From UHGV virus genome UHGV-0177136: DNA of 34,105 nucleotides, one strand, 5' to 3'. Position 1 is the stretch's first letter. Every line of letters starts with the position of its first letter. A model generated the notes under the pieces. That model saw only the letters and a program-made list of their open reading frames with translations, ran no database searches and was not told the origin of the DNA. Origin of the DNA: a virus. A program made the translations under genes and the position numbers. Shown here piece by piece: positions 8,341-25,491 of this stretch.

Positions 8341-8355
8341 ACTCCTTTGTAAATT

Positions 8356-8395
8356 CAGAGCAGTATGTCTGGCGGTGGACGTGACGGATATTAAA
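8356..8395 (-). promoter_or_regulatory. diverged third copy of the late-promoter-like motif, upstream of the tail chaperone gene
   Basis: Minus-sense TTTAATATCCGTCACGTCCACCGCCAGACATACTGCTCTG; shares TAA(A/T)ATCCGT and a CTG-initiated 8-mer at the same spacing. Confidence 0.35.
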
Positions 8396-8409
8396 GGGGA
8401 TTAAGAAGA

Positions 8410-8425
8410 AGGGGCCGGAGCCCCT
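8410..8425 (-). terminator. short GC hairpin (AGGGGC-TCCG-GCCCCT, minus sense) followed by TCTTCTTAAT; candidate terminator after the tube-region genes
   Basis: Perfect 6-bp stem with 4-nt loop just downstream of the stop of ORF 8432..8713. Confidence 0.35.
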
Positions 8426-8431
8426 GTGATG

Positions 8432-8713
8432 TCAGCAAGTGCGAAAACCCTTGCAGTTACGCAGGAAAGCGATGAGAAGCGCCTTTCCCTCAGATTTGCC
8501 GGTGCCGGAGAACCAGTGGTCGGGCGGCTCCCATGCTTCAATCAAATCGGCCAGTTTGCGGGCCTTTGAACGTGTGCAGTCAATCGGGTCATTGGTTTTA
8601 CGGGTATTAAAGAGGGTCTCCACCCCCGGAATATCAAGGAGGGTAAACCACGTACCATTTGACATGCCCAGTGACGCACATCGCCCTCCTTTGTCAGTCA
8701 GTTCAACACTCAC
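8432..8713 (-). CDS. hypothetical protein
   Basis: 93-aa ORF directly after the tail tube gene; no recognisable motif. Confidence 0.4.
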   Translation of the reverse strand: MSVELTDKGGRCASLGMSNGTWFTLLDIPGVETLFNTRKTNDPIDCTRSKARKLADLIEAWEPPDHWFSGTGKSEGKALLIAFLRNCKGFRTC

Positions 8714-8715
8714 CG

Positions 8716-9237
8716 TCAGCCCCCGATATTGATTCGATAGTCAGTCAGTTGATCAACGCCACCGACGCGGAAGATGTTGGCCAGATAGTCCAGTTGCAGC
8801 AACTCTTCACCATCCAGTACCTGTCTGATATACGTGCAGGTGAAGCTACTGGAGAACTCGGCGTTCTCGTGCTGTTTGAACGTCCCCAGCGGGTTCTTCT
8901 TGAACATAATTGTCAGGAAGGTGACCAGCGGGATTTCGTCGATCAGCCCCTGCGAGCTGTAGCGCTGGACGCTGGAGCGACACTGCAGCGCCAGCGACTT
9001 GTACGGGTTCGCGGCAGACAACATCGCATCGCGGTAAAAGCTGTTCCATTTGATTTCGCCTTCCAGTTTGTCAAAACCAGCCGGGAGTTCCACCTTACCC
9101 ACCATCCCCAGTGCCTTGTGCTCCTGCATAATCATGGAGACATCGGGGAGTTTAACTTCCTCAGCCCGTCCCAGCAGGTTAGTACCATCCAGATAGATGT
9201 TGGCATTCGTGATTCGGTTTATCTCAATCTTTGACAT
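8716..9237 (-). CDS. tail tube protein
   Basis: 173-aa ORF immediately after the sheath gene; size and position typical of P2 FII / Mu M-type tube proteins. Confidence 0.75.
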   Translation of the reverse strand: MSKIEINRITNANIYLDGTNLLGRAEEVKLPDVSMIMQEHKALGMVGKVELPAGFDKLEGEIKWNSFYRDAMLSAANPYKSLALQCRSSVQRYSSQGLIDEIPLVTFLTIMFKKNPLGTFKQHENAEFSSSFTCTYIRQVLDGEELLQLDYLANIFRVGGVDQLTDYRINIGG

Positions 9238-10664
9238 CAGTTGCCCCCTTTCAGGGTTAACAGGTATTCCGAGGTGATTTCAGTCTCAAACGTCAGTCGC
9301 TCCAGCGGCGGTGGTGGCGTATATTTGTAGCTCAGCAACAGGTGCCCGGCGGCCAGCTCCGTCTCCGGATTGCGGGCCGGATCAAACCAGCAACGGAAGC
9401 CCAGTACCGCACCATCACCAGTCATTTTGCGACCGTAGGCGTTGACCGACTCCGTCAGTGCATCAATCAGCGCCTGAGTAATCGGCATGTCGATGTACTG
9501 CTGGCTGAAGTAACGAATGGACTCGTTGATCACATCACCGGTGCGGCGAACGTTCTCAAAGTTACGCATATGGGTGACCGTTGGCCATGCCGCCGTCCGG
9601 TTACCCCACAGACGAAGGCCGCTGCCGTAACTGCTGAATACCGTGGTGATCCCCTGTTCGTTAAGCAGGTTCACCTCGCTCTGCGGATCGTCAATCATTG
9701 CCGACAGCTGGCGCTCCACGCCGGTGATCCCCAGAATTTCCTGATTGGAGGATGACCACCAGTACCCTTTGTCCAGGTCGACTTTGGCACGCAGGCCCGC
9801 CGCACGCTGGCTCAGTGGCTCCAGACGCTCCGTGTTCGTCACCGGGTCATATACCTTCACATGCGGGTAGCACAGGCGGACACGGTCAGAGCTGGTATTA
9901 AAGTTAATGGTGCCTTCCGGGCCACGTCCCGCCAGAGCCTGCGCAAAAGTGGTACCAACCGGCGCATCAATATAGGTTACTGCTCCCAGTTTCTCAGCCA
10001 TGGCGATAAGCTCAACCGAGACGCTGTTCTGGGTGCAGAATACCGGAGCAATCAGGATTTTGGCGAAGTAGCCAAACAGGTTAAAACTGTCGTTAAGCAG
10101 CTTCATGCCGGTACGGTTGCCTGCAGCGTTAACGGTACCGATGATATCAGCCGGGGTGACTTTGGTCGGATCAGCATAGTTATAGCTGGCCTTCACCGTT
10201 GCATCTGCAGCAATGCTTTTACCCAGGTTAGTAATCACCCCGGTCTGTGCATCAAGCGAGTAGTCCTGACCTTCAACATAAGGCTGACCGTCGCTGTCCG
10301 GTTTCAGTACCAGTTGCGCGACCACCGGATTAGCCAGCCGGGCTCTGCCTGTCGCCTTGTCGAACGACACATTCTCACTGACCACAGCGGTTTTATGCAC
10401 AGACGGATCGAGTACGTTAATGACCAGAACGGTGCCTGCACCATGGTCATAAATCGCATCCAGCGCCTGCGGAATGGTAAAGCCGGTGAACTGGCTGCCA
10501 AATGCCGCAGCGTCTTTCTCAGACAGGCACTGTACCAGCGTATTGACATCCCCCATCGGGGCGGTACCAATCAGGCCAATAACGGCAGATTTCACCGTTT
10601 TTACCGGGCGGGCTCCGTTTTCCACCTCAATGGTTTCGACGCCATGCAGATAGTTAGCTGCCAT
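9237..10664 (-). CDS. contractile tail sheath protein
   Basis: 475-aa ORF preceding the tube gene; size and order typical of sheath proteins. Confidence 0.8.
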   Translation of the reverse strand: MAANYLHGVETIEVENGARPVKTVKSAVIGLIGTAPMGDVNTLVQCLSEKDAAAFGSQFTGFTIPQALDAIYDHGAGTVLVINVLDPSVHKTAVVSENVSFDKATGRARLANPVVAQLVLKPDSDGQPYVEGQDYSLDAQTGVITNLGKSIAADATVKASYNYADPTKVTPADIIGTVNAAGNRTGMKLLNDSFNLFGYFAKILIAPVFCTQNSVSVELIAMAEKLGAVTYIDAPVGTTFAQALAGRGPEGTINFNTSSDRVRLCYPHVKVYDPVTNTERLEPLSQRAAGLRAKVDLDKGYWWSSSNQEILGITGVERQLSAMIDDPQSEVNLLNEQGITTVFSSYGSGLRLWGNRTAAWPTVTHMRNFENVRRTGDVINESIRYFSQQYIDMPITQALIDALTESVNAYGRKMTGDGAVLGFRCWFDPARNPETELAAGHLLLSYKYTPPPPLERLTFETEITSEYLLTLKGGN

Positions 10665-10908
10665 GGGAGTCCTCCGTTTTCACTTCGCTGTCACTGCTGC
10701 TTCTGCGCTTTGGTGACTGCACAGCTGGTGTGACGGCGGGTTTAGTCTCTTCAGATACCGGCGTCAGATGCTTCAGCGCCACCAGTACCTTCACGTAGTC
10801 ATGCTCCTCCGGCAGGGAAACCGTCTTCCCCGGCCAGAGCATGATTTCGGTTCCGTCCGACAGCGTGACGCCGCTGGCCGGGCCGGAATAGCGGTATTCT
10901 TTCATCAC
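10654..10908 (-). CDS. hypothetical protein (head-tail joining region)
   Basis: 84-aa ORF between head and tail modules. Confidence 0.4.
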   Translation of the reverse strand: MMKEYRYSGPASGVTLSDGTEIMLWPGKTVSLPEEHDYVKVLVALKHLTPVSEETKPAVTPAVQSPKRRSSSDSEVKTEDSHGS

Positions 10909-11369
10909 TCGCTTTCCTCATAGTTCACTTCGGTTAACAGCGGGCCGGACGGTAAATCGCTGTCTTCGATAAAGACGCTTTCAGTCGCGAAGTCGAGGGC
11001 GTATTGCCACAGCCCCCTGACTTCACCGATAAACACCTCGCGGGTCAGCCAGATACGGCGGCGGCAGCCGGGCGGGGTGTGGCCGCCGAGAATGCGGCGG
11101 ACAGCATCCAGGACATTAATCGCCCCTTTTTTACCGTTGAGCTGGCGGAAGACCACCGTGACGCAGAGCTGGATAGTCTGAGACTGGATCACCGCACCGG
11201 TATCATCCGGCCTGTCAAAGCGCGAACCGGCATAGCTCAGCAGCAACGCGCCAACCGGATGGTTCAGGCGATATTCAGCCGGTTTCTCCGGGAAGTACTC
11301 CACCTGCAGTTGCGGCAGCTTCTCGCGTAACCGGGCCAGTACCGCATCAAGGACGGGCAGAACGTTCAT
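10905..11369 (-). CDS. hypothetical protein, Mu gp37-like by position
   Basis: 154-aa ORF in head completion region. Confidence 0.5.
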   Translation of the reverse strand: MNVLPVLDAVLARLREKLPQLQVEYFPEKPAEYRLNHPVGALLLSYAGSRFDRPDDTGAVIQSQTIQLCVTVVFRQLNGKKGAINVLDAVRRILGGHTPPGCRRRIWLTREVFIGEVRGLWQYALDFATESVFIEDSDLPSGPLLTEVNYEESE

Positions 11370-11815
11370 CAGTATTTCTCCAGTAAACCGTCACGACCGC
11401 CGAAAGTGGCCGGGCGGCTGCGTACACGAAACTCGCCAGGCTCAGGCACATCTTTCTGAGTGGACGGCAGCCCCAGCGTGAGCCTGTTATCACGTAACTC
11501 CCTGAGTTGCCGCAGCGCTTCTTTGTGGTCATCCTTCACCGTATCCGGGAGGTCACCTTCCGGGCGGCGGGCGTAGAGCCGGTAACGGACCAGCGTGATG
11601 GCAATGTCCCGCAGAACAGTCGGTATCTCTGCCAGTGGCAGGATATAGCGTCCGCGCAGATGGGCATCAATCAGCTCGTCGGCATAGCGGATACAGCTGT
11701 CCACCACACGGGTATTCACTGTTGCAGGCGAGTCGAAGTCCATCTCTTCACTGGTGAGCTCGATCAGCGTTCGTTCCGGCACCTGCGCAAGCAAATCCTC
11801 CAGGGTGCAGTACAT
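11369..11815 (-). CDS. hypothetical protein, Mu gp36-like by position
   Basis: Track ORF runs to 11977 but the likely start is the ATG at 11815 (MYCTLEDLLAQ...), 1 nt after the stop of the upstream ORF; 148 aa. Confidence 0.5.
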   Translation of the reverse strand: MYCTLEDLLAQVPERTLIELTSEEMDFDSPATVNTRVVDSCIRYADELIDAHLRGRYILPLAEIPTVLRDIAITLVRYRLYARRPEGDLPDTVKDDHKEALRQLRELRDNRLTLGLPSTQKDVPEPGEFRVRSRPATFGGRDGLLEKY

Positions 11816-11816
11816 G

Positions 11817-12155
11817 TCACACCCCGCGCAGGATACGAATGACGTCGCCTTCACCCCCGGCTTCATCAAGTGCAATACCACAGGATTTACCGTCGCCGGA
11901 CTGCGGCACGGCTCTGGCCTGAGCATCTGACTGAACAGCCACACCACGGCTGACAGCGGCCCCGGCCTCGACAGCAATAATGCCCAGAACGCTCACCGGC
12001 GTGCTGTCGCCGGTAACAGCATCCACTTCGGCAACCCCGAGCGCTGCGGCACCGGCTTTACAGGGGGTATTATCTGCCCCGACAAAACGCTGCTGTGCCA
12101 GTGCGGCCCCTGCCGTTACGGTTGTGATCAGAATGACCTGCTGAGTGGTTCCCAT
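11817..12155 (-). CDS. hypothetical Gly/Ala-rich small protein downstream of the major head gene
   Basis: 112-aa ORF directly after the major head gene. Confidence 0.4.
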   Translation of the reverse strand: MGTTQQVILITTVTAGAALAQQRFVGADNTPCKAGAAALGVAEVDAVTGDSTPVSVLGIIAVEAGAAVSRGVAVQSDAQARAVPQSGDGKSCGIALDEAGGEGDVIRILRGV

Positions 12156-12164
12156 AACGCCTCC

Positions 12165-13118
12165 TTATTTACTGATACCGGTAATGAGATACCCGGCATC
12201 GCCACCAACCACGGCGACTTTGTAGATATCGGTATAACGGCAGTACTTCACCTTGCCGCCGGCTCCGTCGTACTTGTCGGCAACAGGCATCCCCTTACGG
12301 CGCAGGGTGTAGCCGAAGGACGGCTCGTTCTCGTCCGCGCTGTCCGCCCCCGGCTGCGGCTTGCCGACGTAATGCAGCATCAGATTGTCTCCCCAGATAT
12401 CCGTCGGCACGCTGTCCTTATCCATTGCCGCTTTCATGGACGGCAGGGAGACAGGAGCACCGATGACGATCTCTTCGATCTGAAAGAGGTCCTGCAGGAT
12501 CTCCGTGGTGATGCGCTTGCGTTCGTTGGCTCCGATGGCTGCCTGAATTGCCGGGTGGAACTTCAGCAGCGCCATCACGCCGGCCCCCATGGTCATCAGG
12601 TTAGGACGCAGCCCCGTGGCCGTACGGACCGCTTCCATACCGGCTTCAATTACCCCGATGGGGTCCCCCTTACCACCGGCCCAGCGGTCGCCGGCTGTCA
12701 GTTTTTTAACGTGCCCGGTACGGTAGACCTTTTCATCCTGAGCCAGACGGGCGGCGATAAGTTCACGGCGCAGATTTACGCCATTCGTGGCGCGACGGAT
12801 GGCCTTGCTCTCCTCGTTAAACATGGACTCCGCCTGTTCGCGATAGTCCACTGGCGCAGCCAGATCGTGCTCACCCAGCACCAGATCAAGCGTGCCGGTT
12901 TTCTCACGGACCAGAACATTGCTGTCCGCCCCGACGGCACGCTCGGTGTCATATTCCACAAAGGCGGTTTTCCCGAAGGTCGGCACACGCACGCCTTCCT
13001 TGTCCGTCAGCACGACGGGGAAAATACGTTCGCCAATGAATGCGGCATTTTTATAGCCTCGGGCGATACTGGTCAGTACCGGATCAACGACACGTTTACC
13101 TTTTAAGTAATCAGACAT
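12165..13118 (-). CDS. major head (capsid) protein, Mu gpT-like
   Basis: 317-aa ORF following the protease/scaffold gene; order I-T as in Mu. Confidence 0.75.
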   Translation of the reverse strand: MSDYLKGKRVVDPVLTSIARGYKNAAFIGERIFPVVLTDKEGVRVPTFGKTAFVEYDTERAVGADSNVLVREKTGTLDLVLGEHDLAAPVDYREQAESMFNEESKAIRRATNGVNLRRELIAARLAQDEKVYRTGHVKKLTAGDRWAGGKGDPIGVIEAGMEAVRTATGLRPNLMTMGAGVMALLKFHPAIQAAIGANERKRITTEILQDLFQIEEIVIGAPVSLPSMKAAMDKDSVPTDIWGDNLMLHYVGKPQPGADSADENEPSFGYTLRRKGMPVADKYDGAGGKVKYCRYTDIYKVAVVGGDAGYLITGISK

Positions 13119-13132
13119 GCTCTCTCCTTAAA

Positions 13133-14248
13133 TTACAGGCAGCGTGCGACAGCAGCCTCATAGCTGATGCCTTCTTTTTTGGACAGGGCCACTGCTTTCT
13201 GATGCAGGGCCAGACGCTCAGGATCGGCTTCCGCAAACTCCGCCACATCCACCTTCACCGCGTCGCCGACACGATCCTTTGTGGCCTGTTCGGCGAAGTT
13301 CATCACCGGCTCCCCGTCGGAGAGCAATGAACGGAAGGCGGTGGCCAGCGGTGTGCGGCTTTCCCCCTCAGCAAACTCCACCGGCTTGTCGCCACCGGCG
13401 ACGGCATCCAGCAGGGCAACCACCACGGAGGAGGCGCGGGGAGCCAGACGCCCCTCTGCGACCAGTTTTTCTGCAAAGGCCACATTGTCCTTATGCAGTT
13501 GCTCCTGTCTGACCTGTGCATCACGCGCATCGCGATCAGCAGCCTGCTGCTTCAGGCGGCGGTTCTCCTCCTGAAGGGCTTCAATCTCTTCTTTTGTCAT
13601 CGATGATTCCTCGTTACTTGCGGAAGACGGCCCCGGGCCTGTCTCACTGAATTGTGCACCTGCTGCATCCTGCGACAATGTGTCGCGGTACGCCTCTTCG
13701 CGCAGACTGTTGAGCTGCCATTCCGGCAGGACTTTTTCTGCCTCGTCCAGACTGAAGCGGGCGATCAGAAAATCGCGCAGCTTTCCCCACAGGGAGGCAT
13801 TCGTGATGGCCTGCCAGTCGGCGAACTCCACCACACCTTCTTCCTGCTCACTGAAGGACACCTGTTTCAGCCCTTTGACGGAAGGTGGCTGTGCCCCGAG
13901 AAAGCCCACATGGCGAAGGTAGAGCACGCCGGGCTTCGGATTGGACGGTGAATCCGGGAGGTAGAAAGAGGCGGACACTTTTTTGAATCGTCCGTCGGTG
14001 ACCATCTCAGCAAACTGCGGGTCCAGCTGGGCAGGCTCTGCCATCAGATCGACGCCGCTGAGCGACAGGGCTTTCACCCAGCCCCACGCCGGGTCTTCCG
14101 TTCTGGGATGACCAATCACGAGTGGTGCTTCATGGACGGACGGGTCATAGGCTTTCACGCAGGCGGCAAGATCGTCTGGCGTGAACGGCAGTTTTTTGCC
14201 GTGCATATCGGTATGAGTACCGGCTTTAAAAATGTGAATGGCTGACAT
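13133..14248 (-). CDS. head maturation protease / scaffold protein, Mu gpI-like
   Basis: 371-aa ORF with charged coiled-coil-like C-terminal half (EEIEALQEENRRLKQQAADRDARDAQ...), immediately upstream of the major head gene and preceded by a 214-bp intergenic region. Confidence 0.65.
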   Translation of the reverse strand: MSAIHIFKAGTHTDMHGKKLPFTPDDLAACVKAYDPSVHEAPLVIGHPRTEDPAWGWVKALSLSGVDLMAEPAQLDPQFAEMVTDGRFKKVSASFYLPDSPSNPKPGVLYLRHVGFLGAQPPSVKGLKQVSFSEQEEGVVEFADWQAITNASLWGKLRDFLIARFSLDEAEKVLPEWQLNSLREEAYRDTLSQDAAGAQFSETGPGPSSASNEESSMTKEEIEALQEENRRLKQQAADRDARDAQVRQEQLHKDNVAFAEKLVAEGRLAPRASSVVVALLDAVAGGDKPVEFAEGESRTPLATAFRSLLSDGEPVMNFAEQATKDRVGDAVKVDVAEFAEADPERLALHQKAVALSKKEGISYEAAVARCL

Positions 14249-14272
14249 TTTGCTGTCCCGCGTTATGTTGTC

Positions 14273-14311
14273 GGAGACAGTTTGTGAGAAATGCAGGCCC
14301 GGCGATTTTAA
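14273..14311 (-). promoter_or_regulatory. late-promoter-like motif upstream of protease/scaffold gene: TTAAAATC-N23-CTGTCTCC
   Basis: Minus-sense TTAAAATCGCCGGGCCTGCATTTCTCACAAACTGTCTCC, in the 214-bp intergenic region between the gpG-like and gpI-like genes. Confidence 0.45.
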
Positions 14312-14384
14312 TCTGCTTTAGAAAACATCAGGGGAGAAGGACAGGGAAAGCAATGCGGTGAACCGGAGGCGGTTATAAAACAGA

Positions 14385-14416
14385 GGCTGTAAAGCCTTTA
14401 TAAAGGTAATACAGCC
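14385..14416 (-). terminator. imperfect 32-bp dyad followed on the minus strand by TCTGTTTTAT; candidate terminator after the gpG-like gene
   Basis: GGCTGTA...TACAGCC arms with internal CCTTTATAAAGG palindrome. Confidence 0.35.
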
Positions 14417-14462
14417 CCTCATTCGCTGGCAATGATAAATCACCCACCTGAAGAGAGAAAAC

Positions 14463-14921
14463 TCAGCGACGGGCCGCTGATTCAAGATGGCGGACAATGG
14501 TATCGAGGATGGGGATTACCACTTCAGGCTGTAGTTCTCCATCCCCCGTCACCGGCAGGAACGGGCGGGCCGGAAGTTCAACAGACTCATTACGCCCCGT
14601 TTTACCCCCGAACTGGTGAATGGCACCGTAAACAACGTTGGTCCCCACAACAGCCTGCCGGTCGTCATGGTCGGTTGATACTGACCCCATCAGACGCCCG
14701 GTATCCTGCAGTGTCTGCCCGTCACGTTCTTCCGCTGCCAGCGAGGGCATCCACCCCGGACGCCCCTCATCAAGAAAGTTAAACTGTGTTTCCGCCAGCA
14801 GGGTTCCGGCGATTTTGCGCATCGCGGGCTCCATGTCTGTGGCAGCCAGATCCAGCGCACGGAGGCTCCGGCGCAGGGATTTATCGTTAATGGTGATACT
14901 GACCAGGTTATCGGAAGCCAT
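14463..14921 (-). CDS. virion morphogenesis protein, Mu gpG-like
   Basis: 152-aa ORF following the F-like gene. Confidence 0.6.
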   Translation of the reverse strand: MASDNLVSITINDKSLRRSLRALDLAATDMEPAMRKIAGTLLAETQFNFLDEGRPGWMPSLAAEERDGQTLQDTGRLMGSVSTDHDDRQAVVGTNVVYGAIHQFGGKTGRNESVELPARPFLPVTGDGELQPEVVIPILDTIVRHLESAARR

Positions 14922-14923
14922 TG

Positions 14924-15745
14924 TTATCCTCTCAGTTCCTGTTGTGCCAGTGGCTGAAGCGTACCCTGATAGCGGGCCAGGTCGGGACGGTATGCTGCCC
15001 CCGGTGCATAAGACCAGCCGACGTCGGTGGTCACCTTCGTGGTGCCGGTATTAAAGGTGGCCACGTTCCGCATTTCGCCGGTTTTCTCTGAGACCAGTTT
15101 CAGTTCCTGGCCCATGGCAGAGCCGGAGCTGATAACCTTCAGGCCACGGGCACGTACATCCGCCGCACTCAGGGCAATCACACTACAGCGGCAGCGCCAG
15201 CCGTTCGGCGGGTAAAATGCCTGCCAGAACGGGTCATCCCAGCGCAGCACCAGACCATGCAGCGCCAGATGGCTCCTGCGGGTATGGCTGTCGTTGATGC
15301 CGGTATACATCCAGTACGGCCTGTCGTCGACGTTTTCCATCTGTTCCGCCCAACGACCGGCGCTGTAGAGTACGGACATATTGGTGCGAAAGATGGTATC
15401 GAGCCGCCACGGACTGCCCTGCTGAATGGTGACCGGCTTACCCGTTACCGGGTCAGTCGTGTCACGTGGTCCCCACCATCCCTTACGCTTCAGCACCGGC
15501 TCCAGCTCCTGCCGGAACCAGCGATCGGTTTTTCCTTCATCGACAGCCTGCTGCAGTGCCCCGCGAATATCTTCCAGGATATCCAGGCGGGTCACTTTAG
15601 CAACGGTAAAGGCGCGGGCATGGGCCTCCTGCCACATTTCTTCCCAGTCCCAGGTAATCTGATACCCTTTGGACTTCAGGTAACTGACTGCCCGCTTCGG
15701 GGGAAGCGTCATGCAGTACGCCAGTTCAGCCGTTGTCACGCTCAT
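14924..15745 (-). CDS. head morphogenesis protein, Mu F-like
   Basis: Follows portal gene; likely start at internal ATG 15745 (MSVTTAELAY...) rather than track start 15772. Confidence 0.7.
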   Translation of the reverse strand: MSVTTAELAYCMTLPPKRAVSYLKSKGYQITWDWEEMWQEAHARAFTVAKVTRLDILEDIRGALQQAVDEGKTDRWFRQELEPVLKRKGWWGPRDTTDPVTGKPVTIQQGSPWRLDTIFRTNMSVLYSAGRWAEQMENVDDRPYWMYTGINDSHTRRSHLALHGLVLRWDDPFWQAFYPPNGWRCRCSVIALSAADVRARGLKVISSGSAMGQELKLVSEKTGEMRNVATFNTGTTKVTTDVGWSYAPGAAYRPDLARYQGTLQPLAQQELRG

Positions 15746-17222
15746 GCAGACGTCCCCAGATATTTGCCACAAAGAGAATGCGGGCCAGCCGTTCCTGCAG
15801 ATCGTCCGTGTTCATCTGAGGGTAGAGCTCCGCCAGTTCGCCCAGCAGCTCAGTCGGGTTAACCCCGTTTTCGACCCGCTTAAACAGAGGTGCCAGGACG
15901 GGTTCCAGCGTGCCATTTAACACACCTCCGTTCATCAGAATGTCCAGCGCGTCGTCAAGCTGCTGCTGAGCCTGAATATCGGCATCAATCGCCTCGGCAA
16001 ATGACAGCGGCAGCATGTTATTCTGGCGTTCCGACGGTGGTGTCTCGTCAATATCGCCGTCCTGCAGCTGGTACTCACGCTTAAAGTACTGCGGGGTCAG
16101 ACGCAGACCCGCCCGGGTGAGTTTTTCGTCGCGGGTGGCGCGGGTGTCATCAATGGTCTCCTGTTCCCACATGGCCCAGACCGGACACGGCACATCGCCG
16201 AAGTTCAGGGTGACCACCGTTCTGATAACCTGATTCACTGCTGCCTGAATGATGTCCGCATCCGCATCGCGGATATCAGCCGTTACCTCCAGCCCGGCCT
16301 GTGCTGAGGCCTTGTTACTGTTCGCTTCCGTGGTCTGATTCTGACCAAGTAATGCAATGGAGATCTCACTGCGTGACAGTGTGATCAGCTCGCGGAATAC
16401 CTCGCTGCTGTCCGCCTTACCATCCGCGGCTTTGAGTTCGATGCTGCTGTCATCGGGGATGGCGGCCACCGCGTCCTCCACCATCTGCTCCATGGAGTCC
16501 AGCAGTTTTTCAATCTCTGCATCATTTGCACCCCTCGGGTGCTTACCGATCACCCACGGGGAGCCAAACTTTTCGGCAAAGCGGAGCCAGAATTTCATCC
16601 CGCCTTTCTTGAAGGCGACCGGCCAGAAGCACATGGACAGGTCCGGGAAACCGTAAGGATTGTCATACGAGGCATCCTGTGCCGGCACCACGAATTTTGA
16701 CGGTGACAGCAGCTCACCCTCCACACCCGCATCACGCGCCCGGAAGCGCAGGCAGTTGTCCGTATCAAACTGAAACCACTCAGGCGGTTTGCCGACAATA
16801 TCCGTCACTGCCCACGCCCTGACCGAACGGCCCCACATGATTTCACAGGGCTGATACCCGTAGAGCACGGCATCACTCATCTCACCGATGATGCGGGACA
16901 GATCCAGATCGTCGAGCATGTCGCGGATGAAACGAAAGACCCGGGCAGAAGCGTGACCGCGCTCCAGTCCACGCTCCAGTGATTTGAGCGCTGCTTTACG
17001 TCTGCGGATACAGCCCCCAACCAGCGGGTCGGTGCGCAGTTCGCGGTAGATACGGATATCCCGTCCCTGAGCCTTGAGAATGGGATCAGGATTGGGCAGA
17101 TACATGCCCAGTCCGTAAAAGTCGATCGCGCGGCTGCGGGAGGCAATCTGCGCGGTCAGTGATTTCTGAGGCTCAGAAAAAGCAACAAATTCATCGGGTG
17201 AAACCCAGATACCCCTCGCCAT
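15726..17222 (-). CDS. portal protein (Mu gp29-like)
   Basis: 498-aa ORF immediately downstream of the large terminase gene. Confidence 0.75.
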   Translation of the reverse strand: MARGIWVSPDEFVAFSEPQKSLTAQIASRSRAIDFYGLGMYLPNPDPILKAQGRDIRIYRELRTDPLVGGCIRRRKAALKSLERGLERGHASARVFRFIRDMLDDLDLSRIIGEMSDAVLYGYQPCEIMWGRSVRAWAVTDIVGKPPEWFQFDTDNCLRFRARDAGVEGELLSPSKFVVPAQDASYDNPYGFPDLSMCFWPVAFKKGGMKFWLRFAEKFGSPWVIGKHPRGANDAEIEKLLDSMEQMVEDAVAAIPDDSSIELKAADGKADSSEVFRELITLSRSEISIALLGQNQTTEANSNKASAQAGLEVTADIRDADADIIQAAVNQVIRTVVTLNFGDVPCPVWAMWEQETIDDTRATRDEKLTRAGLRLTPQYFKREYQLQDGDIDETPPSERQNNMLPLSFAEAIDADIQAQQQLDDALDILMNGGVLNGTLEPVLAPLFKRVENGVNPTELLGELAELYPQMNTDDLQERLARILFVANIWGRLHERDNG

Positions 17223-18817
17223 CAGAATCCCTCCAGCATACGGGCCGCCTGACGACGACGGCGTGAGCTTGCCTTCACCGGCCCTTTGTTAATTTCACGG
17301 CTGGCGAAATACGCCAGCGCCAGTGCGATGGCTGAATCCCCGTGGCGTTTACCACCGTCAGCCTTTGCTTTTGAGCGTTGCTCCGGCACGCGGGGGACAC
17401 CGTTCACCACCTGAACGGCCCGCAGGTCATCCAGTGTGTCTTCATCCTTTGGTAAGTCCACCAGGTTACCGTCTTCCAGTGCAGCTTTGACCGGAGGCAT
17501 ATGCTCCCGGTACCAGCCTTCAGTTGGCATCACCTGCTGAACCCGGCTGGAGCCGTAGCGCTGCATGGCGTATTCAGCCAGATAGGCACCATTACCACGG
17601 GCATCAAACGCTGCACCCAGCAGACCGGGCAGGCCATCCATCAGATACCAGGTGATTTGCTCCTGCTGTCTGAACGGCACGTTACGCAGCTCCAGTACGA
17701 ATGGCACGCGTCGTACCAGGTTCTTCTCCTGCAGCAGGGGATAGTCCACCGACAAATCACCGCTACGGCCAAAGTCGCGCCCCAGGAAAGAGCGGGCATC
17801 AGCGGGGAGTGCCTCCAGCAAGGGTTTCAGATGCTCATCAAGCCAGTCCTGTGTCTCGTGGAAGCGAACCTCATCAGACAGCAGTTCATAACCTTCCTGA
17901 CAGGTCAGACGCAATACCGGCGTATCAGCGGACATGCGGGACTCTATCAGGGCACGGGACAGCCAGGCGCCGCCACCGTTGGCCGGAATACAATCAAGCT
18001 CTTCGGATGCGCCGGCAGCGTAGAATTTGTACACCGACGCCATCCAGGCCTGCTCGGATGCCTCTGACCATTCCTTCCCGGTGCGCAGACAAACGCGCCG
18101 GAACAGCCCCTCAGATACGGCTTCCCGGAAAGTGATGCGATGTACGCTGCCTCCCTGACGTCCGGCACGGATATCCCCGATAAGCGTATTGAACGGATTG
18201 TCGTCACCGTCATGGGTGGAGATAACGCGTACCTTTCCCCCCCAGATAAGCATCGCCAGCGCCGCTTTCAGCAGTTCGTCCAGTTGCTCATGGAACGCCG
18301 CTTCGTCGATAACAATAATACCCTGACGGCCACGCAGGTTAGACGGGCGGCTGGAGAGCGCAACAATACGAAAGCCGGAGTCAGGAAATTTGATGGTGTA
18401 AGTCTTGATGTGTTTGTCGTCGTCGTCCTCTTCCCAGAATCCTTCTTCAATTTCACTGGCCGCATAGTTGAATGCCCGTGCCCACATCGCACACGCCTGA
18501 ATGTATTCGACGGTCATGTCCTGGTTATAAGCGATGTAATACACATTCATCCCGCCTGCTGGCGCAGAAGAGGCGGCGGTCAGTACGTTATCGGATGCCT
18601 CAGCCCATGTAATACCGGTACGACGGCTCTTTTCTATCACCTTAAGCGGAGAGGTGTCTGCCACCCAGCGCTGCTGGTAAGGCAACAGAACGGGAGGGAC
18701 ATCCAGCGCCGAGGTATCAGGCAAAACGGGAGCAAGGTTATTCCTCCCGTCCATGGGACTCATCCCTTCGGGGCCGCCGCCAGCGGCGTTTAAAATCACT
18801 CCGGATGATTTTGTCAT
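17222..18817 (-). CDS. terminase large subunit (Mu gp28-like)
   Basis: 531-aa ORF between small-terminase-like and portal genes. Confidence 0.75.
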   Translation of the reverse strand: MTKSSGVILNAAGGGPEGMSPMDGRNNLAPVLPDTSALDVPPVLLPYQQRWVADTSPLKVIEKSRRTGITWAEASDNVLTAASSAPAGGMNVYYIAYNQDMTVEYIQACAMWARAFNYAASEIEEGFWEEDDDDKHIKTYTIKFPDSGFRIVALSSRPSNLRGRQGIIVIDEAAFHEQLDELLKAALAMLIWGGKVRVISTHDGDDNPFNTLIGDIRAGRQGGSVHRITFREAVSEGLFRRVCLRTGKEWSEASEQAWMASVYKFYAAGASEELDCIPANGGGAWLSRALIESRMSADTPVLRLTCQEGYELLSDEVRFHETQDWLDEHLKPLLEALPADARSFLGRDFGRSGDLSVDYPLLQEKNLVRRVPFVLELRNVPFRQQEQITWYLMDGLPGLLGAAFDARGNGAYLAEYAMQRYGSSRVQQVMPTEGWYREHMPPVKAALEDGNLVDLPKDEDTLDDLRAVQVVNGVPRVPEQRSKAKADGGKRHGDSAIALALAYFASREINKGPVKASSRRRRQAARMLEGF

Positions 18818-19359
18818 GTGGCAATCCCCAGAATCTCGCGACGAAGCGCCTGTACTGCGTCGCTTGACAGTCCCCCCTTACGGGCAATTTTCTCGGCGTT
18901 GCTGGCTGCCTGCTGCGCTCTGGCCCGTACTTCAGACTGGAACTTTTTGAGGTTGACGGACGCGCGGGACAGCGTAGCCACATTCTTCGCCACCTTCGAC
19001 AGCAGGGCCACGCGTTCTTTAGGATCGACTTCGCCTTCTTCCGCCTCCTGCAACTGGACAATACTCTCGAACAGCTCGGTCTGAATAAGGGCTATCACAG
19101 CCTCCGAACGCGCATCCTGATCGTCTGCTGCGCCTTCGGTCAGCATGCGGGCCGCTTCTGTTGCCGCACGGATAGCACCATAGCGGCGCTCAATCTTCTG
19201 TCCATAGCGATGGATAGCGGATTTGCTGATAACGTACCCCCGCTCACGCAGCAGGGACTCCAGCTCGTTATACCCGCTGAAGCCGGATTCAGTCAGCGCC
19301 CGTTCAAGCCAGCGGCGCACGTCTTCCGGCAGCTTTTCTATTGTGCTGCGTCTGGCCAT
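18814..19359 (-). CDS. putative terminase small subunit (Mu gp27 / DUF3486-like)
   Basis: 181-aa ORF with N-terminal HTH-like segment, directly upstream of the large terminase. Confidence 0.6.
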   Translation of the reverse strand: MARRSTIEKLPEDVRRWLERALTESGFSGYNELESLLRERGYVISKSAIHRYGQKIERRYGAIRAATEAARMLTEGAADDQDARSEAVIALIQTELFESIVQLQEAEEGEVDPKERVALLSKVAKNVATLSRASVNLKKFQSEVRARAQQAASNAEKIARKGGLSSDAVQALRREILGIAT

Positions 19360-19670
19360 TATTCACTCCAGTACTTTTCCGGGCGGGCAATACCCGGACC
19401 ACATTCCACGGTGTATTCCACCAGGTCTACGCCGAGGCGGGTCAGGTCAGCAAACCAGTCGCCAGAAGGTTTTTTCTCCAGATCAACCATTTTACGGTCA
19501 GCCAGATAATCCAGTTCGCGGCGCAGTTCCAGCGGTGTGGTGTCCGGGTAGATGGCACGGGACACATCCAGCAGCAGCGTCTCGCTGGCGGTGTAAGGGC
19601 GGGTCTTGTTCAGGGCAACCAGCAGACTCCAGCGCAGGGATTCGCGGCGTACCCGGGTAATATCGACCAT
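19359..19670 (-). CDS. hypothetical protein (Mu gp26-like by position)
   Basis: 103-aa ORF between lysis cassette and terminase genes. Confidence 0.45.
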   Translation of the reverse strand: MVDITRVRRESLRWSLLVALNKTRPYTASETLLLDVSRAIYPDTTPLELRRELDYLADRKMVDLEKKPSGDWFADLTRLGVDLVEYTVECGPGIARPEKYWSE

Positions 19671-19996
19671 TATTGACCTCCGGTATTGCGGTACTGCTGT
19701 ACCACTTCCAGTTTGTTATAAAGCGCGTCCAGTTTGGCCTCAATGACTGTCTGGCCACGGATATAATCCTCTCGACGGACATAATTCAGCGGTAAATCCG
19801 CTTTAAATCGCATAAATTCTTTTTCCAGCTCGCCCCAGTTGGAGGCGGACTGTTGCAGGGCCTGTTCAAGGGAGGCGAATCGTGCCGCCTGGCGTTCTTC
19901 TGTTTTACTGAACAACCATTTGGCGAGCCCTCCCACAAACCCCATGAAGGTGAGCAGAAAACTCACTACCGTCCAGAATTCAACCTGCAGTGTCAT
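19670..19996 (-). CDS. hypothetical membrane protein (Mu gp25-like by position)
   Basis: 108-aa ORF with one N-terminal hydrophobic helix (FWTVVSFLLTFMGFVGGLA) then coiled-coil-like region. Confidence 0.45.
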   Translation of the reverse strand: MTLQVEFWTVVSFLLTFMGFVGGLAKWLFSKTEERQAARFASLEQALQQSASNWGELEKEFMRFKADLPLNYVRREDYIRGQTVIEAKLDALYNKLEVVQQYRNTGGQ

Positions 19997-20643
19997 TTCT
20001 GTAATCCTTCCCGTTCATCCAGTAACGCGTTTATCTGGTTCCGCCAGCGACGACATTGTCCTGCGTTGTCGATGATGTTGGCGAGAACGTCACGCTGGGA
20101 GACACCCGAATCGCGTAACCGGGTGTCAGTGGTTTCAGGTTGCCCGGTCGCTGTGCCAGAGCGGGTGCCAGCGGCGGCAACTGAGTCTGAATGACCGGTG
20201 TCGACGGATGCATTGTCATATCCGAGTGCGGCGTTGTACTGGCGCACGAAACCGCGAGTAAACACGCACTCAATGGGATGGCTCTTACCTTTTTCATCAA
20301 TCCAGCGCTGTGTGACATCGTTAATTTGCCCCTGTAGTTGTTTATTCCGGCTCTCCAGTTGAGCAATCTGCTCAAGATAACCGGCTTCAGCCCGCTGCCC
20401 GGCGGCCACCTGCTCCTGATACCGTCTGGCCCAGGCCCGCAGCGCAGCATTCTCAAGCGTTGCCTGCTCCGTTTTGTACGCGTCAAATGCTGACTGCAAC
20501 TGACTGAGCGCGGTATCACCGTCACGCTTTGCAGAGTCATGACCACTTCTGTATCCCATGGCATACAGGCCGACCAGAAAGGCATTGATAAGAATGGCCA
20601 GCAGAATGCCGCGCCACGGCAGCTTTTTAACCAGATGCCACAC
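19993..20643 (-). CDS. putative i-spanin (Rz-like)
   Basis: N-terminal TM (ILLAILINAFLVGLYAM) followed by coiled-coil region, right after endolysin. Start set to GTG 20643 (GGAGG 9 nt upstream); alternative ATGs at 20733 and 20745. Confidence 0.5.
   Translation of the reverse strand: MWHLVKKLPWRGILLAILINAFLVGLYAMGYRSGHDSAKRDGDTALSQLQSAFDAYKTEQATLENAALRAWARRYQEQVAAGQRAEAGYLEQIAQLESRNKQLQGQINDVTQRWIDEKGKSHPIECVFTRGFVRQYNAALGYDNASVDTGHSDSVAAAGTRSGTATGQPETTDTRLRDSGVSQRDVLANIIDNAGQCRRWRNQINALLDEREGLQK
20031..20297 (-). CDS. putative o-spanin lipoprotein (Rz1-like), embedded in a different frame of the i-spanin gene
   Basis: 88-codon ORF from ATG 20297: MKKVRAIPLSACLLAVSC with lipobox-like AVSC, followed by Pro-rich sequence. 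Confidence 0.45.
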   Translation of the reverse strand: MKKVRAIPLSACLLAVSCASTTPHSDMTMHPSTPVIQTQLPPLAPALAQRPGNLKPLTPGYAIRVSPSVTFSPTSSTTQDNVVAGGTR

Positions 20644-21361
20644 AACTGCTGCCTCCCCATGTGAGATATCGCGGTGCCAGTTCGCGCAGGATGCGCTGCG
20701 GATAATGGCGGTTCTCCCGCCAGCTGGCCGCATTGCGTCCGGCATTCACCGTGGCGACATGTCCGAACCAGCGGGTGCTGTCCAGACCTTTCTGTGATGC
20801 AAGCCGCCTGTCCCGTTGTACCCAGCCCAGACCACCGTTATAGCCCGACAGTGTCATGGCCATACGCTCGCAGTCGTTGGCGGCGCTGACGCGCTGCCAC
20901 AGCCAGCGGTCATAGCTGACCAGCGCCCGGATAGCCCATGCAGGATTAAACGGCTCACGATTGCTCAGCATCGGTATCAACTGGCTTATCCAGTCGGCAG
21001 TGGCAGGCATGAACTGCGCCAGTCCCTGAGCGCCAGCCGGCGAGACCGCATCAGGTCGCCAGCCGCTTTCCTGATGCAGTTGCGCGGCGAAATCGGCCAC
21101 CGGCGCAGACAGTCCCCATTCAAGCCGGGCATTACGGATCACATCATCGCGATACTGCAGCGCAGCCTGCGGAGGCTGCGCTGCGCGGGCCTGACTGAAG
21201 AAGCCGCCACACCAGAGCAGCCAGACAATCACCAGGTTGCCAGCAAGCTGCCACCAGAAGCTGTATTTATCGTTACGTGGTTCTCCGTGTCTGATGGCGG
21301 TTACGCCCAGACCAAAGGCGAACAGAATAATGAGGGTGATTTGAGGCCAGTTCATGGTCAC
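20627..21361 (-). CDS. endolysin, lytic transglycosylase (SLT domain) with N-terminal hydrophobic segment
   Basis: 244 aa; SLT-like motifs (QESGW, AQGLAQFMP); N-terminal TM-like helix suggests a signal-anchor-release type. Confidence 0.75.
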   Translation of the reverse strand: MTMNWPQITLIILFAFGLGVTAIRHGEPRNDKYSFWWQLAGNLVIVWLLWCGGFFSQARAAQPPQAALQYRDDVIRNARLEWGLSAPVADFAAQLHQESGWRPDAVSPAGAQGLAQFMPATADWISQLIPMLSNREPFNPAWAIRALVSYDRWLWQRVSAANDCERMAMTLSGYNGGLGWVQRDRRLASQKGLDSTRWFGHVATVNAGRNAASWRENRHYPQRILRELAPRYLTWGGSSCVASG

Positions 21362-21708
21362 AGTCCTGTTGCCACAGCCAGACAGACCGCTGCAACAATC
21401 AGTGCACGGCGGATTAACGCAGCAGAAAATACAAGGTGAAGGCCGGTCTGCACAGGGAAACGCCCTTCAGCCATCAGTCTGTCGTCATGTTTCAGGTACT
21501 GACCGGGACGGGCTTTGGGGAAGAGCGAACGGTCAAGCCAGTAACCCAGCACTGCTGCCAGCGTGATGAGTGCCAGCTTGTAGATCACAACAGGCAACTG
21601 CTGTGGCGAGACCAGAGCGATGATGCCCAGCAACAGCACTGAGGTCAGCAGCCAGCCGCTGAGGCGAGGTTTTTTAACAGGGGGAATGAATTTTTTCAGG
21701 TTTTTCAT
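21358..21708 (-). CDS. putative holin / lysis membrane protein
   Basis: First gene of the late cluster; likely start ATG 21708 (MKNLKKF..., RBS GAGGAGA) rather than GTG 21741; three hydrophobic helices. Confidence 0.5.
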   Translation of the reverse strand: MKNLKKFIPPVKKPRLSGWLLTSVLLLGIIALVSPQQLPVVIYKLALITLAAVLGYWLDRSLFPKARPGQYLKHDDRLMAEGRFPVQTGLHLVFSAALIRRALIVAAVCLAVATGL

Positions 21709-21727
21709 GTGTGTCTCCTCGTTTGGT

Positions 21728-21766
21728 GGAGACAGCATCACAAATGTGGCGGGATACGGATTTTAA
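21728..21766 (-). promoter_or_regulatory. late-promoter-like motif upstream of holin gene: TTAAAATC-N23-CTGTCTCC (minus-strand sense)
   Basis: Minus-sense sequence TTAAAATCCGTATCCCGCCACATTTGTGATGCTGTCTCC; the two 8-mers and their spacing recur upstream of the gpI-like gene. Confidence 0.45.
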
Positions 21767-21822
21767 ACAGCGTTAATAGTGAAGATGTAAACGTGCACTG
21801 CATGATGGCTTTGAAAGAACGA

Positions 21823-21850
21823 CCAGCCCGGTACCCGAACACCGGGCTGG
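21823..21850 (-). terminator. GC-rich hairpin (10-bp stem, 8-nt loop) followed on the minus strand by a T-rich tract; candidate intrinsic terminator/insulator upstream of the late operon
   Basis: CCAGCCCGGT / ACCGGGCTGG perfect inverted repeat; minus-sense downstream sequence TCGTTCTTTC. Confidence 0.4.
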
Positions 21851-21955
21851 CCATCGCCCCACAGGAATGCGCTGTGAGCCGACCAAGGTTCAGTCAGTCT
21901 CGCGCGACCACACTAGCCTGGCATATTTTTTATAATTGTAAAAGGCTTACAGATT

Positions 21956-22726
21956 ATGAAAATGCAGACATTACCCATCGTTCCATGGATTGGTGGCAAA
22001 CGCCGCCTTGCAAAACACATCCTGCCGCTGTTTCCGGCGCATGAATGTTATGTGGAGCCGTTTTGTGGGGCAGCAGCGCTCTATTTTCTTAAGGTACCCG
22101 GCAAGATCGAAGTCATTAATGATATCAACGGTGAGCTGGTGAACCTGTATCGGGTGGTAAAACATCATCTGGAAGAATTTGTACGCCAGTTCAAATGGGC
22201 GCTGGTCAGCCGGCAGATCTACAAATGGCTGCAGATCACCCCGGAAGAAACACTGACGGATATCCAGCGTGCAGCACGGTTCTACTACCTTCAGAAGCAG
22301 GCGTTTGGGGGCAAGGTGGCGGAGCACAGCTTTGGTACCTCCACCATATCCCCGCCACGCTTCAACCTGCTGCGTATTGAAGAAGAACTGTCAGCGGCAC
22401 ACCTGCGGCTTTCCAGAACGGTCATAGAACACATGGACTGGCAACAGTGCATAGAACGATATGATCGCCCGCATACGTTGTTCTACTGTGACCCTCCATA
22501 CTGGGGAACGGAAGGTTATGGTGTGGAGTTCGGACTAGAAAATTATGATCATATGGCAGATTTAGCACGCAGGATCAAAGGGAAGATGATTATATCGGTG
22601 AACGATATCCCGGAAATGCGGCAGGCATTCAACGGTCTAAATATTCAGTCGGTTGATATCAGCTACAACCTCAAGATCACTGGCAAATCCAGTCGCAAGA
22701 AGGAACTCATTATCCTCAACTTTTGA
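21956..22726 (+). CDS. DNA adenine methyltransferase, Dam/D12 family (no adjacent restriction enzyme gene seen)
   Basis: 256 aa; N-terminal WIGGKRRL SAM-binding-type motif and DPPY catalytic motif; TATAAT at 21931..21936 upstream. Confidence 0.85.
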   Translation: MKMQTLPIVPWIGGKRRLAKHILPLFPAHECYVEPFCGAAALYFLKVPGKIEVINDINGELVNLYRVVKHHLEEFVRQFKWALVSRQIYKWLQITPEETLTDIQRAARFYYLQKQAFGGKVAEHSFGTSTISPPRFNLLRIEEELSAAHLRLSRTVIEHMDWQQCIERYDRPHTLFYCDPPYWGTEGYGVEFGLENYDHMADLARRIKGKMIISVNDIPEMRQAFNGLNIQSVDISYNLKITGKSSRKKELIILNF

Positions 22727-23923: not shown

Positions 23924-24931
23924 TTAAACCTCAGTCATCCACATTTCCCTAAATTCTTCAGGTACATTACGTAGGGTGATAATATTTGTTTCCGGATCAT
24001 AATCAATATAGCCTTCAGTTTTCCCTTCCCGGTCAAACTTAAGTTCCCAATATTTAGACTTGCCTTTAAAAGATACCAGAGCCCGAATGACTCGACCATC
24101 AGGAACGAAGCCATCCGATAACTCCAACTCTTCAGCAGCAAGTTTACCAGATAACTCCTCGGGAGCCTGGGGCCAAATGGCATTAACAAGGGTTTCAAGA
24201 CTAAGTGGTTCACCAGCCTTACTTAGTGCATGTAAGTGTTCAAACGCACTCTTAAGAAATGCATCTTTTTCAGCGCCGTCAAGTCCTTTCTCTGCCGCAA
24301 ATGCTTTTAAAACGTCACGTAACTTTTCAGACTCTCGTTTGGCGATTAAGACATCATTACAGCCTAGGAACTGTTTAAAATAGTTTGAAACATTACCTTG
24401 CCCCTTAAGAAAACTGATATAGCGCTCTGCGCCACTTTCCCACGCGGTTAAGTCAATGCGCCCAGCCATACGCAGCTTAGCAATATCAAGATAGGTACTA
24501 TCTTGGATGTTAAAATCATCTGTGACAGTGGACCCAATGGTAGCGCTTACAATAGCTATCAACAGGTGTTCATTGTGTCCTATCACGATATTTGCAAAAA
24601 GAACATAACCACCAGTAGCCATGTTTTCTCGCTGAGAACGTTCCGTCAGGTGATGCATCATTCGGCAGGAACTTTGGTAGAAATCATCAACACCTTCGAG
24701 AAAGTCCCCAGCCATTCGTTCCATAGGATAGTTATCCGTATCGCCTTCAAAATAGCCATAACCTTTACCTGTGCGTCCTGCATATTTTGCACAAATATCG
24801 TTTATAAGGCGCTGAGAGGCTTCAGTAACTAGACCTTCTTCAGGACTCAATCTCTCAGAAGCGTCTCCATTTTGTTGTTTGTCTAAAATGTGAACTACAA
24901 CGTGTTTAACTTCAATGGTCTGCTCAGACAT
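23924..24931 (-). CDS. NdpA/YejK-like (NA37 family) nucleoid-associated DNA-binding protein homolog
   Basis: 335 aa, the length I recall for E. coli YejK; segments such as GGYVLFANI, YLDIAKLRMAGRIDLTAWESGAERYISFLKG and the C-terminal YIDYDPETNIITL match my recollection of YejK ([54 protein letters not shown]). RBS AAGGTGG upstream. Confidence 0.6.
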   Translation of the reverse strand: MSEQTIEVKHVVVHILDKQQNGDASERLSPEEGLVTEASQRLINDICAKYAGRTGKGYGYFEGDTDNYPMERMAGDFLEGVDDFYQSSCRMMHHLTERSQRENMATGGYVLFANIVIGHNEHLLIAIVSATIGSTVTDDFNIQDSTYLDIAKLRMAGRIDLTAWESGAERYISFLKGQGNVSNYFKQFLGCNDVLIAKRESEKLRDVLKAFAAEKGLDGAEKDAFLKSAFEHLHALSKAGEPLSLETLVNAIWPQAPEELSGKLAAEELELSDGFVPDGRVIRALVSFKGKSKYWELKFDREGKTEGYIDYDPETNIITLRNVPEEFREMWMTEV

Positions 24932-25409: not shown

Positions 25410-25425
25410 TTGAACATATCTCAAT

Positions 25426-25453: not shown

Positions 25454-25491
25454 AGACCCAATAGAGTACATCATAACCTAACAAGAACACG

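Follow-up and report, generated by a model that had tools for sequence, protein, structure and literature searches.

In this study we analysed a 34,105-nt stretch of DNA, the virus genome UHGV-0177136 (here called the window), and a motif that is repeated upstream of its late genes. The window is a transposable, Mu-like prophage of the BcepMu type from E. coli, with the layout of Burkholderia phage BcepMu. The repeated element is real, conserved and regulatory. Its four copies are very probably late-gene promoters of an activator-dependent sigma-70 type, one for each late unit, which would be switched on by the single Mor/C-type protein of the phage. An original prediction made from the window had proposed a late-activator-dependent promoter, and our results suggest that this was right in kind, while we correct the anatomy of the promoter, the count of sites, and what the activator is and where it is encoded.

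Organisation of the four sites

The original prediction was built on two exact copies of TTAAAATC-N23-CTGTCTCC on the minus strand, at 21766..21728 and 14311..14273. Both are present, ending 19 nt before the holin ATG (21708) and 24 nt before the protease/scaffold ATG (14248) as described, and a search of the window for the same pattern gave no further match at three or fewer mismatches (0.19 expected by chance). A third copy, thought to be more diverged, had been placed before the tail chaperone gene. This copy does exist, but its spacing is not different; the register in which it was read was one base off. When the sites are read in the register TTAAWAKC-N19-NANNCTG the spacing is the same in all three, which we call S1 (TTAAAATC-N19-GATGCTG), S2 (TTAAAATC-N19-CAAACTG) and S3 (TTAATATC-N19-CATACTG). 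The two 8-mers therefore do not hold up as functional boxes: TTAAAATC is the promoter-proximal half of a TTAA-N6-TTAA box, and CTGTCTCC is made up of the last two bases of the -10 hexamer and the six-base discriminator. The other half of the box, a TAA 6 bp upstream of the TTAA box, is found in S1, S2 and S3 alike and had been overlooked. A search of the window with TAA-N6-TTAAWAKC (0.02 matches expected) found these three sites and an independent fourth, S4 (2607..2564, minus strand), contained in the 57-bp gap before the baseplate W gene (2557..2210, minus strand), so that there are four sites and not three. The same box was not found in the early region of the window.

A comparison of 59 related prophage loci and phage Mu gives the anatomy of the predicted promoter as yTAA-N6-TTAAWAKC, then 19 nt, then a weak -10-like hexamer NANNCT and a C/T-rich discriminator. 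Across the sites the hexamer follows the pattern (C/G/A)A(T/A)(A/G)CT. When the upstream regions of three of the genes were aligned in 56 viral contigs, the AT-rich box was kept, about 10-14 bases were free, and there followed a kept block ending in the -10-like hexamer and a G. The promoter-distal part of the spacer varies and a -35 hexamer is absent, the bases at -35 to -30 (for example AATCCG) being unlike TTGACA. TTAAAA was considered as a -35 hexamer and rejected, since it would leave a spacer of 21 nt, which is too long. A search for consensus sigma-70 promoters found none at any of the four sites, as would be expected for activator-dependent promoters. The centre of the box lies about 42-43 bp upstream of the predicted +1.

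All four sites are on the minus strand. The S1 activator box, TTAAcgctgtTTAAAATC (21759..21776), a predicted Mor site at about -49 to -32, heads the unit of holin, lysis, terminase and portal genes; its -10-like hexamer GATGCT (21734..21739) precedes a predicted +1 at 21727 (an A) and the holin ATG at 21708. The S1 box is kept in relatives while its flanks and spacer vary. S2 heads the unit of the Mu I-like protease/scaffold and head genes, with the box CTAAagcagaTTAAAATC (14304..14321), the hexamer CAAACT (14279..14284), which is the same as the -10 of Mu PI, a predicted +1 at 14272 and the ATG at 14248. S3 heads the tail assembly chaperone and tape measure unit, with the box TTAAtcccctTTAATATC (8387..8404), the hexamer CATACT (8362..8367) and a predicted +1 at 8355; the start codon is at 8340 or, judged by relatives, at 8334. 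S4 heads the baseplate W gene, with the box TTAAacgcctTTAATATC (2590..2607) and the hexamer AATACT (2564..2569), and its predicted +1, 2557, is the A of the W ATG. Orthologous S4 sites are found in Klebsiella phage KP12, Escherichia phage PhiKM, BcepMu, Pseudomonas phage Komp_PAO1_1 and the genome loci. By Pfam, the first genes of the four units are a holin (Holin_2-3), the Mu I-like protease/scaffold, a tail chaperone (Phage_TAC_7) and baseplate W (GPW_gp25). The likeness in placement to Mu Plys, PI and PP that had been pointed out for the first three sites is confirmed, in that the sites head the lysis/terminase/portal, head protease/scaffold and tail units.

We also observed that the S4 spacer of the window (2570..2589) is 20 nt long, compared with 19 nt in KP12, PhiKM and nearly all relatives. 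This one-base insertion may weaken the promoter.

Conservation in related prophages

A 21-nt weight matrix of the box was built from 10 sites of three genomes. In the window four matches score 22.9 bits or more, and every one lies on the late-gene strand. Exactly four strong matches, in late orientation and in orthologous places, are found in the window, KP12, PhiKM, BcepMu and Komp_PAO1_1, the exception being the chaperone site of BcepMu, which has diverged. A genome scan anchored on the capsid gene, using an alignment of four sequences, yielded 80 loci covering 1.53 Mb. In these there are 160 matrix matches on the late strand versus 7 on the opposite strand, and they cluster before the lysis, I, tail chaperone and W genes; the opposite-strand matches in relatives are without the NANNNT hexamer. 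Against this stands a background of 2 matches of at least 19 bits per 741 kb of strand in unrelated or distant DNA, and about 1 match of at least 16 bits per 80 kb of strand. The box is found at the four orthologous positions, with its orientation kept, in prophages of Enterobacterales, Pseudomonas, Burkholderiales and Neisseriaceae.

The hexamer positions lie outside the matrix and so give independent support for the -10. NANNNT occurs exactly 19 nt past the box in 137 of 139 unique family sites, many of which are phylogenetically related, while most other offsets have it in 0-6%. The family consensus is ttTAAacCcgaTTAAAAgcC-N17-sAwaCTG. In the conservation profile the box is kept, the spacer is variable and the -10 and discriminator are kept; farther upstream the sequence is mosaic.

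A single Mor/C-type activator

The candidate activator of S1 to S4 is encoded by the Mor/C-family gene at 33716..34105 on the plus strand (Pfam Mor, PF08765, 1.3e-43), the last gene of the early operon, which overlaps gemA (33253..33744) as in Mu. The predicted protein shares 31% identity with Mu Mor and, over 68 aa, 37% with Mu C. Its recognition-helix region, VSLQW/FVY, is conserved in the BcepMu and Komp_PAO1_1 proteins and is distinct from the corresponding region of Mu Mor and C. A recognition region shared among the BcepMu-type proteins and unlike that of Mu fits a box that they likewise share and that is unlike the Mu box. The Mor-like protein is most likely the activator of the four sites.

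Two activators acting in succession, as in Mu, offer a different explanation. The original prediction placed a separate C gene beyond the Mor-like gene, outside the window; its product would activate a two-box promoter composed of TTAAAATC and CTGTCTCC in a three-tier cascade. Mu does have both Mor and C, and the two 8-mers are shared exactly by S1 and S2. The position of mor speaks strongly against it. A complete E. coli chromosome (O78 strain 3) contains a 99.8% identical prophage in which mor is the last phage gene, with a disrupted host cbrA 163 bp on; BcepMu likewise has its Mor/C homologue, gp01, in terminal position, 364 bp short of the end of the genome. KP12 has one gene past mor, and this is a Mu gp27-like fragment. 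A tblastn search with seven Mor/C proteins found one homologue per BcepMu-like genome, while both Mor and C were recovered in Mu. Neither the two paralogous activators nor the middle operon of the Mu three-tier cascade were found here, and the single homologue and the terminal position of mor indicate that there is no separate C. Furthermore, CTGTCTCC is not kept across the four sites or the family, whereas NANNCT at a fixed distance is. We therefore regard a separate C as very improbable.

In the scheme that we favour, a single Mor/C-family protein would be made at the end of the early operon (33716..34105). As an oligomer, it would bind the box and recruit or help RNA polymerase, as Mu C does at Plys, PI, PP and Pmom, with transcripts predicted to start at 21727, 14272, 8355 and 2557. 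The result would be a two-tier cascade, early and then late, instead of the three tiers of Mu.

Several points weigh against this scheme. The matrix matches in its three source genomes are partly circular, independent support being given by the 59 further loci and the -10 spacing, and the relatedness of many of the 139 family sites means that the counts overstate independent events. The matrix scan of capsid-anchored loci did not find the box in relatives from Ignavibacteria and Bacteroidota. The transcription-start tables of Burkholderia cenocepacia J2315, a BcepMu carrier (PMC4603805), have no start at the predicted positions; they are from uninduced biofilm cells and so are uninformative. 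The role of Mor as the protein that binds the box is putative and is drawn from homology and geometry only. The late promoters might instead be read via another factor, such as a phage DNA-binding protein (for example the IclR/Ner-like protein, 25719..26027), a host factor or an alternative sigma factor, with Mor acting elsewhere. The AT-rich boxes could be UP-like elements or nucleoid-protein sites, and the phage carries a gene for an NA37 nucleoid-associated protein. Yet the position of the box and the spacing of its half-sites are within 1 bp of those of the Mu C and Mor sites, the window proteins that were searched include no sigma factor, the mosaic upstream regions show that NA37 and dam are missing from many relatives that retain the box, and the box is absent from the early region. 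We consider a role for another factor unlikely, and activation by the Mor-like protein remains the reading that we prefer.

A predicted leaderless W mRNA

The position of the W start codon relative to the hexamer is conserved. Among unique W-class sites, from Enterobacterales to Burkholderia, the ATG is 6 nt past the hexamer in 11 of 12 and 7 nt past it in the remaining one, the +1 being predicted. In BcepMu this distance is 6 nt and in Komp_PAO1_1 it is 7 nt. The start region in the window is AATACTgcctccATG, in which the A of the ATG (2557) is the seventh base past the hexamer. W-class sites have no Shine-Dalgarno sequence and no purine-rich tract upstream. Hexamer and ATG are arranged as in W at the I gene of Betaproteobacterial relatives too. 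If the promoters are real, the W units, and the Betaproteobacterial I units, begin with leaderless mRNAs, and we predict a conserved leaderless late W mRNA.

This layout also bears on an annotated gene start. In BcepMu (region 18811..18880) the annotated start of gp32, ATGATG at 18850, lies inside the predicted -10 GATGAT. An ATG 7 nt past GATGAT opens the reading frame MNAKPLHIF..., which aligns with the N-terminus of the I protein of the window. The annotated start of BcepMu gp32 is probably wrong.

Inverted repeats at the discriminator

S1 contains an inverted repeat, TGTCTCC-N9-GGAGACA (21712..21734, minus strand), whose 5' arm coincides with the discriminator (CTGTCTCC) while the other arm lies over the holin Shine-Dalgarno sequence. 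A repeat of this length, 7 bp, was reached by 0.3% of shuffles. At S2, CTGTC(T)CC pairs with GGGACAG, although a bulge is needed, and here too CTGTCTCC is complementary to the Shine-Dalgarno region of the unit's first gene. Predicted folding energies (kcal/mol) for read-through transcripts versus transcripts from the site's own promoter are -14.2 versus -0.5 at S1, -12.6 versus -5.9 at S2, -10.5 versus 0 at S3 and -12.7 versus 0 at S4. Perfect stems of at least 7 bp that touch the discriminator are found in 42% of family sites, compared with 0.8% of shuffles. Positions -8 to -1 form the focal point, being in a stem arm in about 57% of family sites, and the partner arm lies either at +10 to +21, over the ribosome site or start codon, or at -21 to -13, so that the arms flank the -10. 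The arm sequences vary between lineages and within a genome (for example ACTGCCTCTATTA/TAATAGAGGCAGT, CACGCCGCC/GGCGGCGTG and GGGGGC/GCCCCC), and this variety favours a nucleic-acid structure over a protein site.

Repeats with the architecture of S1 are found at two Mu promoters, Plys and PI (Mu 10450..10484 and 18026..18049). At Plys, GCCATCA (-6 to +1) is matched by TGATGGC over the lys ATG, and at PI, CTGCTCA is matched by TGAGCAG over the annotated ribosome site of gene I. Each is 7 bp long and was reached by 1-2% of shuffles, and PP and Pmom have no such repeat. We know of no description of the Plys and PI repeats.

These structures bring up the possibility that the element is not a promoter at all, but an RNA signal (a processing site, a terminator or a translational operator) or a site in the DNA that serves packaging, transposition or repression and lies in intergenic gaps by chance. 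Inverted repeats do overlap the elements, and in Pseudomonas relatives T-rich runs follow some of the hairpins that flank the -10. However, the AT-rich box is outside the hairpins, and the fixed distance of 19 nt to NANNNT is a promoter signature. The ATG of W-class genes, 6-7 nt past the hexamer and with no ribosome site, is sensible only if transcription starts there. In addition, the hairpin sequences differ among the sites of one genome, so that no single protein could read them. The chance that the element is something other than a promoter is in our judgement very small.

If the sites are promoters, as we think probable, the repeats may have a role of their own. Transcripts entering from upstream, either from the repressor and cargo genes or from the preceding late unit, would fold back and hide the ribosome site, while transcripts initiated at the promoter, starting 7 nt past the hexamer, would lack the 5' arm and stay translatable. 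We tentatively speculate that Mor/C-type late promoters, in BcepMu-like phages and at Mu Plys and PI, might carry a built-in insulator, in which the discriminator (-8 to +1) has been selected to be complementary to the translation start of the first gene or to the spacer before the -10, so that an entering transcript would fold and be untranslatable or would stop, and one initiated at the promoter, leaderless in several cases, would be translated. This is a possibility that we put forward with some doubt, and part of the data goes against it. In the window only the perfect stem of S1 stands out, those of S3 and S4 being 4 bp long and reached by 43-49% of shuffles. Covariation in the alignment of the lysis class is weak, consisting mostly of G.U changes with one compensatory pair. 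An alignment of I-class leaders gave no consensus structure, the hairpins being lineage-specific in sequence and position, and per-sequence shuffle tests were used instead. An excess of G.U wobble pairs on the sense strand (12 versus 3) was set aside as evidence for RNA structure; it is only suggestive and comes mostly from one Photorhabdus clade. If the insulator were true, expression of the lysis and structural genes would depend strictly on Mor-activated starts, and this would protect lysogens, whose repressor and cargo genes read toward the lysis cassette.

Terminator-like hairpins on the minus strand lie upstream of three of the sites. Just upstream of S1 there is a hairpin of -32 kcal/mol (z = -3.9) followed by UCGUUCUUUC (21813..21861), which was missed by a simple scan. 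A second one (14384..14397) is past the G-like gene and upstream of S2. The third, AGGGGCtccgGCCCCT with a T-rich tail (8410..8425), abuts S3; it is the top-ranked terminator-like site and is kept in relatives. A separate observation was made for the lysis class in Pseudomonas relatives, where the -10 GATCAT is in the loop of a GC-rich hairpin of 9-11 bp with a T-rich run after it (TGTATTTCT), which has the look of a terminator laid over a promoter.

Gene layout and related records

The nearest records to the window are Escherichia phage PhiKM (98%), which is classified as Bcepmuvirus, and Klebsiella phage KP12 (86%). Of 5426 complete E. coli genomes, 640 carry the same prophage, among them IAI39, CE10 and O78 strain 3. 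The late genes, which comprise lysis, terminase, portal, head and P2-like tail genes, take up the minus strand from about 21700 to position 1. The early operon is on the plus strand from 25719 to the end of the window and encodes an IclR/Ner-like regulator, an rve transposase, an AAA+ MuB-like protein, Gam, GemA and Mor, the IclR/Ner-like protein (25719..26027) being at its start. Three minus-strand genes read toward the lysis cassette: a repressor of the HTH_3/CI type (25505..25002), the NA37 gene (24931..23924) and a gene for a 401-aa protein that matched no Pfam family (23921..22716). The second and third of these resemble cargo genes, and other genes take their place in KP12, PhiKM and BcepMu. 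A D12-class adenine methyltransferase gene, dam (21956..22726), is on the opposite, plus strand between the cargo genes and the lysis promoter. We considered a divergent Mor-dependent dam promoter (with the palindromic S1 box and TTAA-N24-CATGAT on the plus strand, in a mom-like logic) and dropped it because the upstream region is mosaic among relatives and because the matrix matches on the opposite strand in relatives have no NANNNT hexamer; the arrangement is not conserved.

Some further observations concern the relatives and their records. In E. coli O78 strain 3 (NZ_CP084096.1, 50426..51155) the prophage ends at most 163 bp past mor and interrupts the host cbrA, which fits insertion of the transposition type. 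Capsid relatives at 40-45% identity (from Ignavibacteria, Bacteroidota and other metagenome-assembled genomes) are without the box, and late control there must differ. The KP12 record is filed under Vequintavirinae despite the BcepMu-like nature of the phage, and its annotation uses the name RdgB for a Mor homologue. A small gene past mor in the PhiKM record is labelled as an Fe2+ ABC transporter permease. CDS0006 of the Komp_PAO1_1 record (5112..7241) has been called on the wrong strand, over the I and capsid genes.

Implications

BcepMu-type prophages are common, with relatives in Klebsiella, Pantoea, Photorhabdus, Pectobacterium, Pseudomonas and Burkholderia. With the box and the -10 defined, late units could be annotated, start codons corrected (as for BcepMu gp32) and Mor-inducible reporters built. 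The box would provide a second, divergent DNA specificity to set beside recent structural work on Mor and C. The single-activator cascade proposed here suggests that the Mor-to-C relay of Mu is not obligatory in the family, and the conserved leaderless layout and the repeats centred on the discriminator are testable additions to the paradigm of the Mu late promoter. The searchable literature gave us no account of these promoters or of late regulation in BcepMu-type prophages; the original BcepMu genome paper (Summer et al. 2004) is outside that scope and could mention a conserved upstream sequence.

Comparison with known systems

The late promoters of P2 and 186 are activated by the Ogr/B zinc-finger proteins through a TGT-N12-ACA site near -55; there are four of them, with no -35. 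The predicted promoters of the window are similar in that one small phage activator would serve four late promoters without a -35, and the tail genes of BcepMu-type phages are P2-like. They differ in that the window has neither the TGT-N12-ACA pattern nor a gene for a zinc-finger activator. A P2/Ogr-type TGT-N12-ACA site was looked for in S1 to S3 and is not present in them.

A parallel for the proposed insulator is found in IS10 and IS50, the transposase genes of which are reportedly shielded from outside transcription by fold-back, in work attributed to Davis, Simons and Kleckner in 1985. At S1 and S2 and in many relatives, as in IS10 and IS50, the native start is inside an inverted repeat, so that only transcripts from upstream hold both arms and would hide the ribosome site. 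The host element and the class of gene are different. Here, moreover, the 5' arm is the end of the promoter's own -10 together with the discriminator, and in many relatives the arms flank the -10.

The closest likeness is to Mu. The C-dependent promoters of Mu have a -10, no -35 and, overlapping the -35 region, a 16-bp imperfect dyad with its centre at -43.5 (PMC2582627), and Mor likewise binds a dyad centred at -43.5 (PMC4287176, PMC2582627). A 2025 preprint describes Mor and C as binding in tetrameric form to two adjacent major grooves. Pm, Plys, PI, PP and Pmom are all annotated in the Mu record; of these, Pmom is TTATgccccaATAA-N24-TAAGAT, PI is ..CATAA-N24-CAAACT and Plys is ..CATAA-N24-TAGACT; the sites of the window are TTAA-N6-TTAA-N23-hexamer, with N24 in S4. 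The late promoters of Mu were not detected by our matrix. The two sets nevertheless have in common four promoters heading late units, a -10 hexamer without a usable -35, and an AT-rich, bipartite, imperfect dyad with 4-bp half-sites 6 bp apart and its centre at about -43. Between the proximal half-site and the -10 there are 23-24 nt here and 24 nt in Mu, and from the box centre to the hexamer there are 30 nt in the window (31 in S4) compared with 31 nt in Mu Pmom, Plys, PI and PP, the +1 being predicted. The hexamer CAAACT is the -10 of both Mu PI and S2. The activator family and the presence of terminators between units are also shared, and Plys and PI also have a repeat between the discriminator and the translation start.

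The activator gene is syntenic with Mu mor, being last in the early operon and overlapping gemA. In Mu, however, the Mor-dependent promoter Pm drives a middle operon with C, whereas here there is no such operon and the predicted targets are the late morphogenesis and lysis units, so that one activator would take the place of the Mor-then-C relay. The window also has two tail promoters (for the chaperone and W genes) and none for a mom-like gene, its late genes are divergent from the early operon, and one unit is predicted to open with a leaderless gene. The half-sites are TTAA...TTAAWAKC here and TTAT...ATAAcCCC in Mu. The four sites are thus predicted to be late promoters of the Mu Mor/C type, an element of the expected kind, with a half-site sequence that differs from that of Mu.

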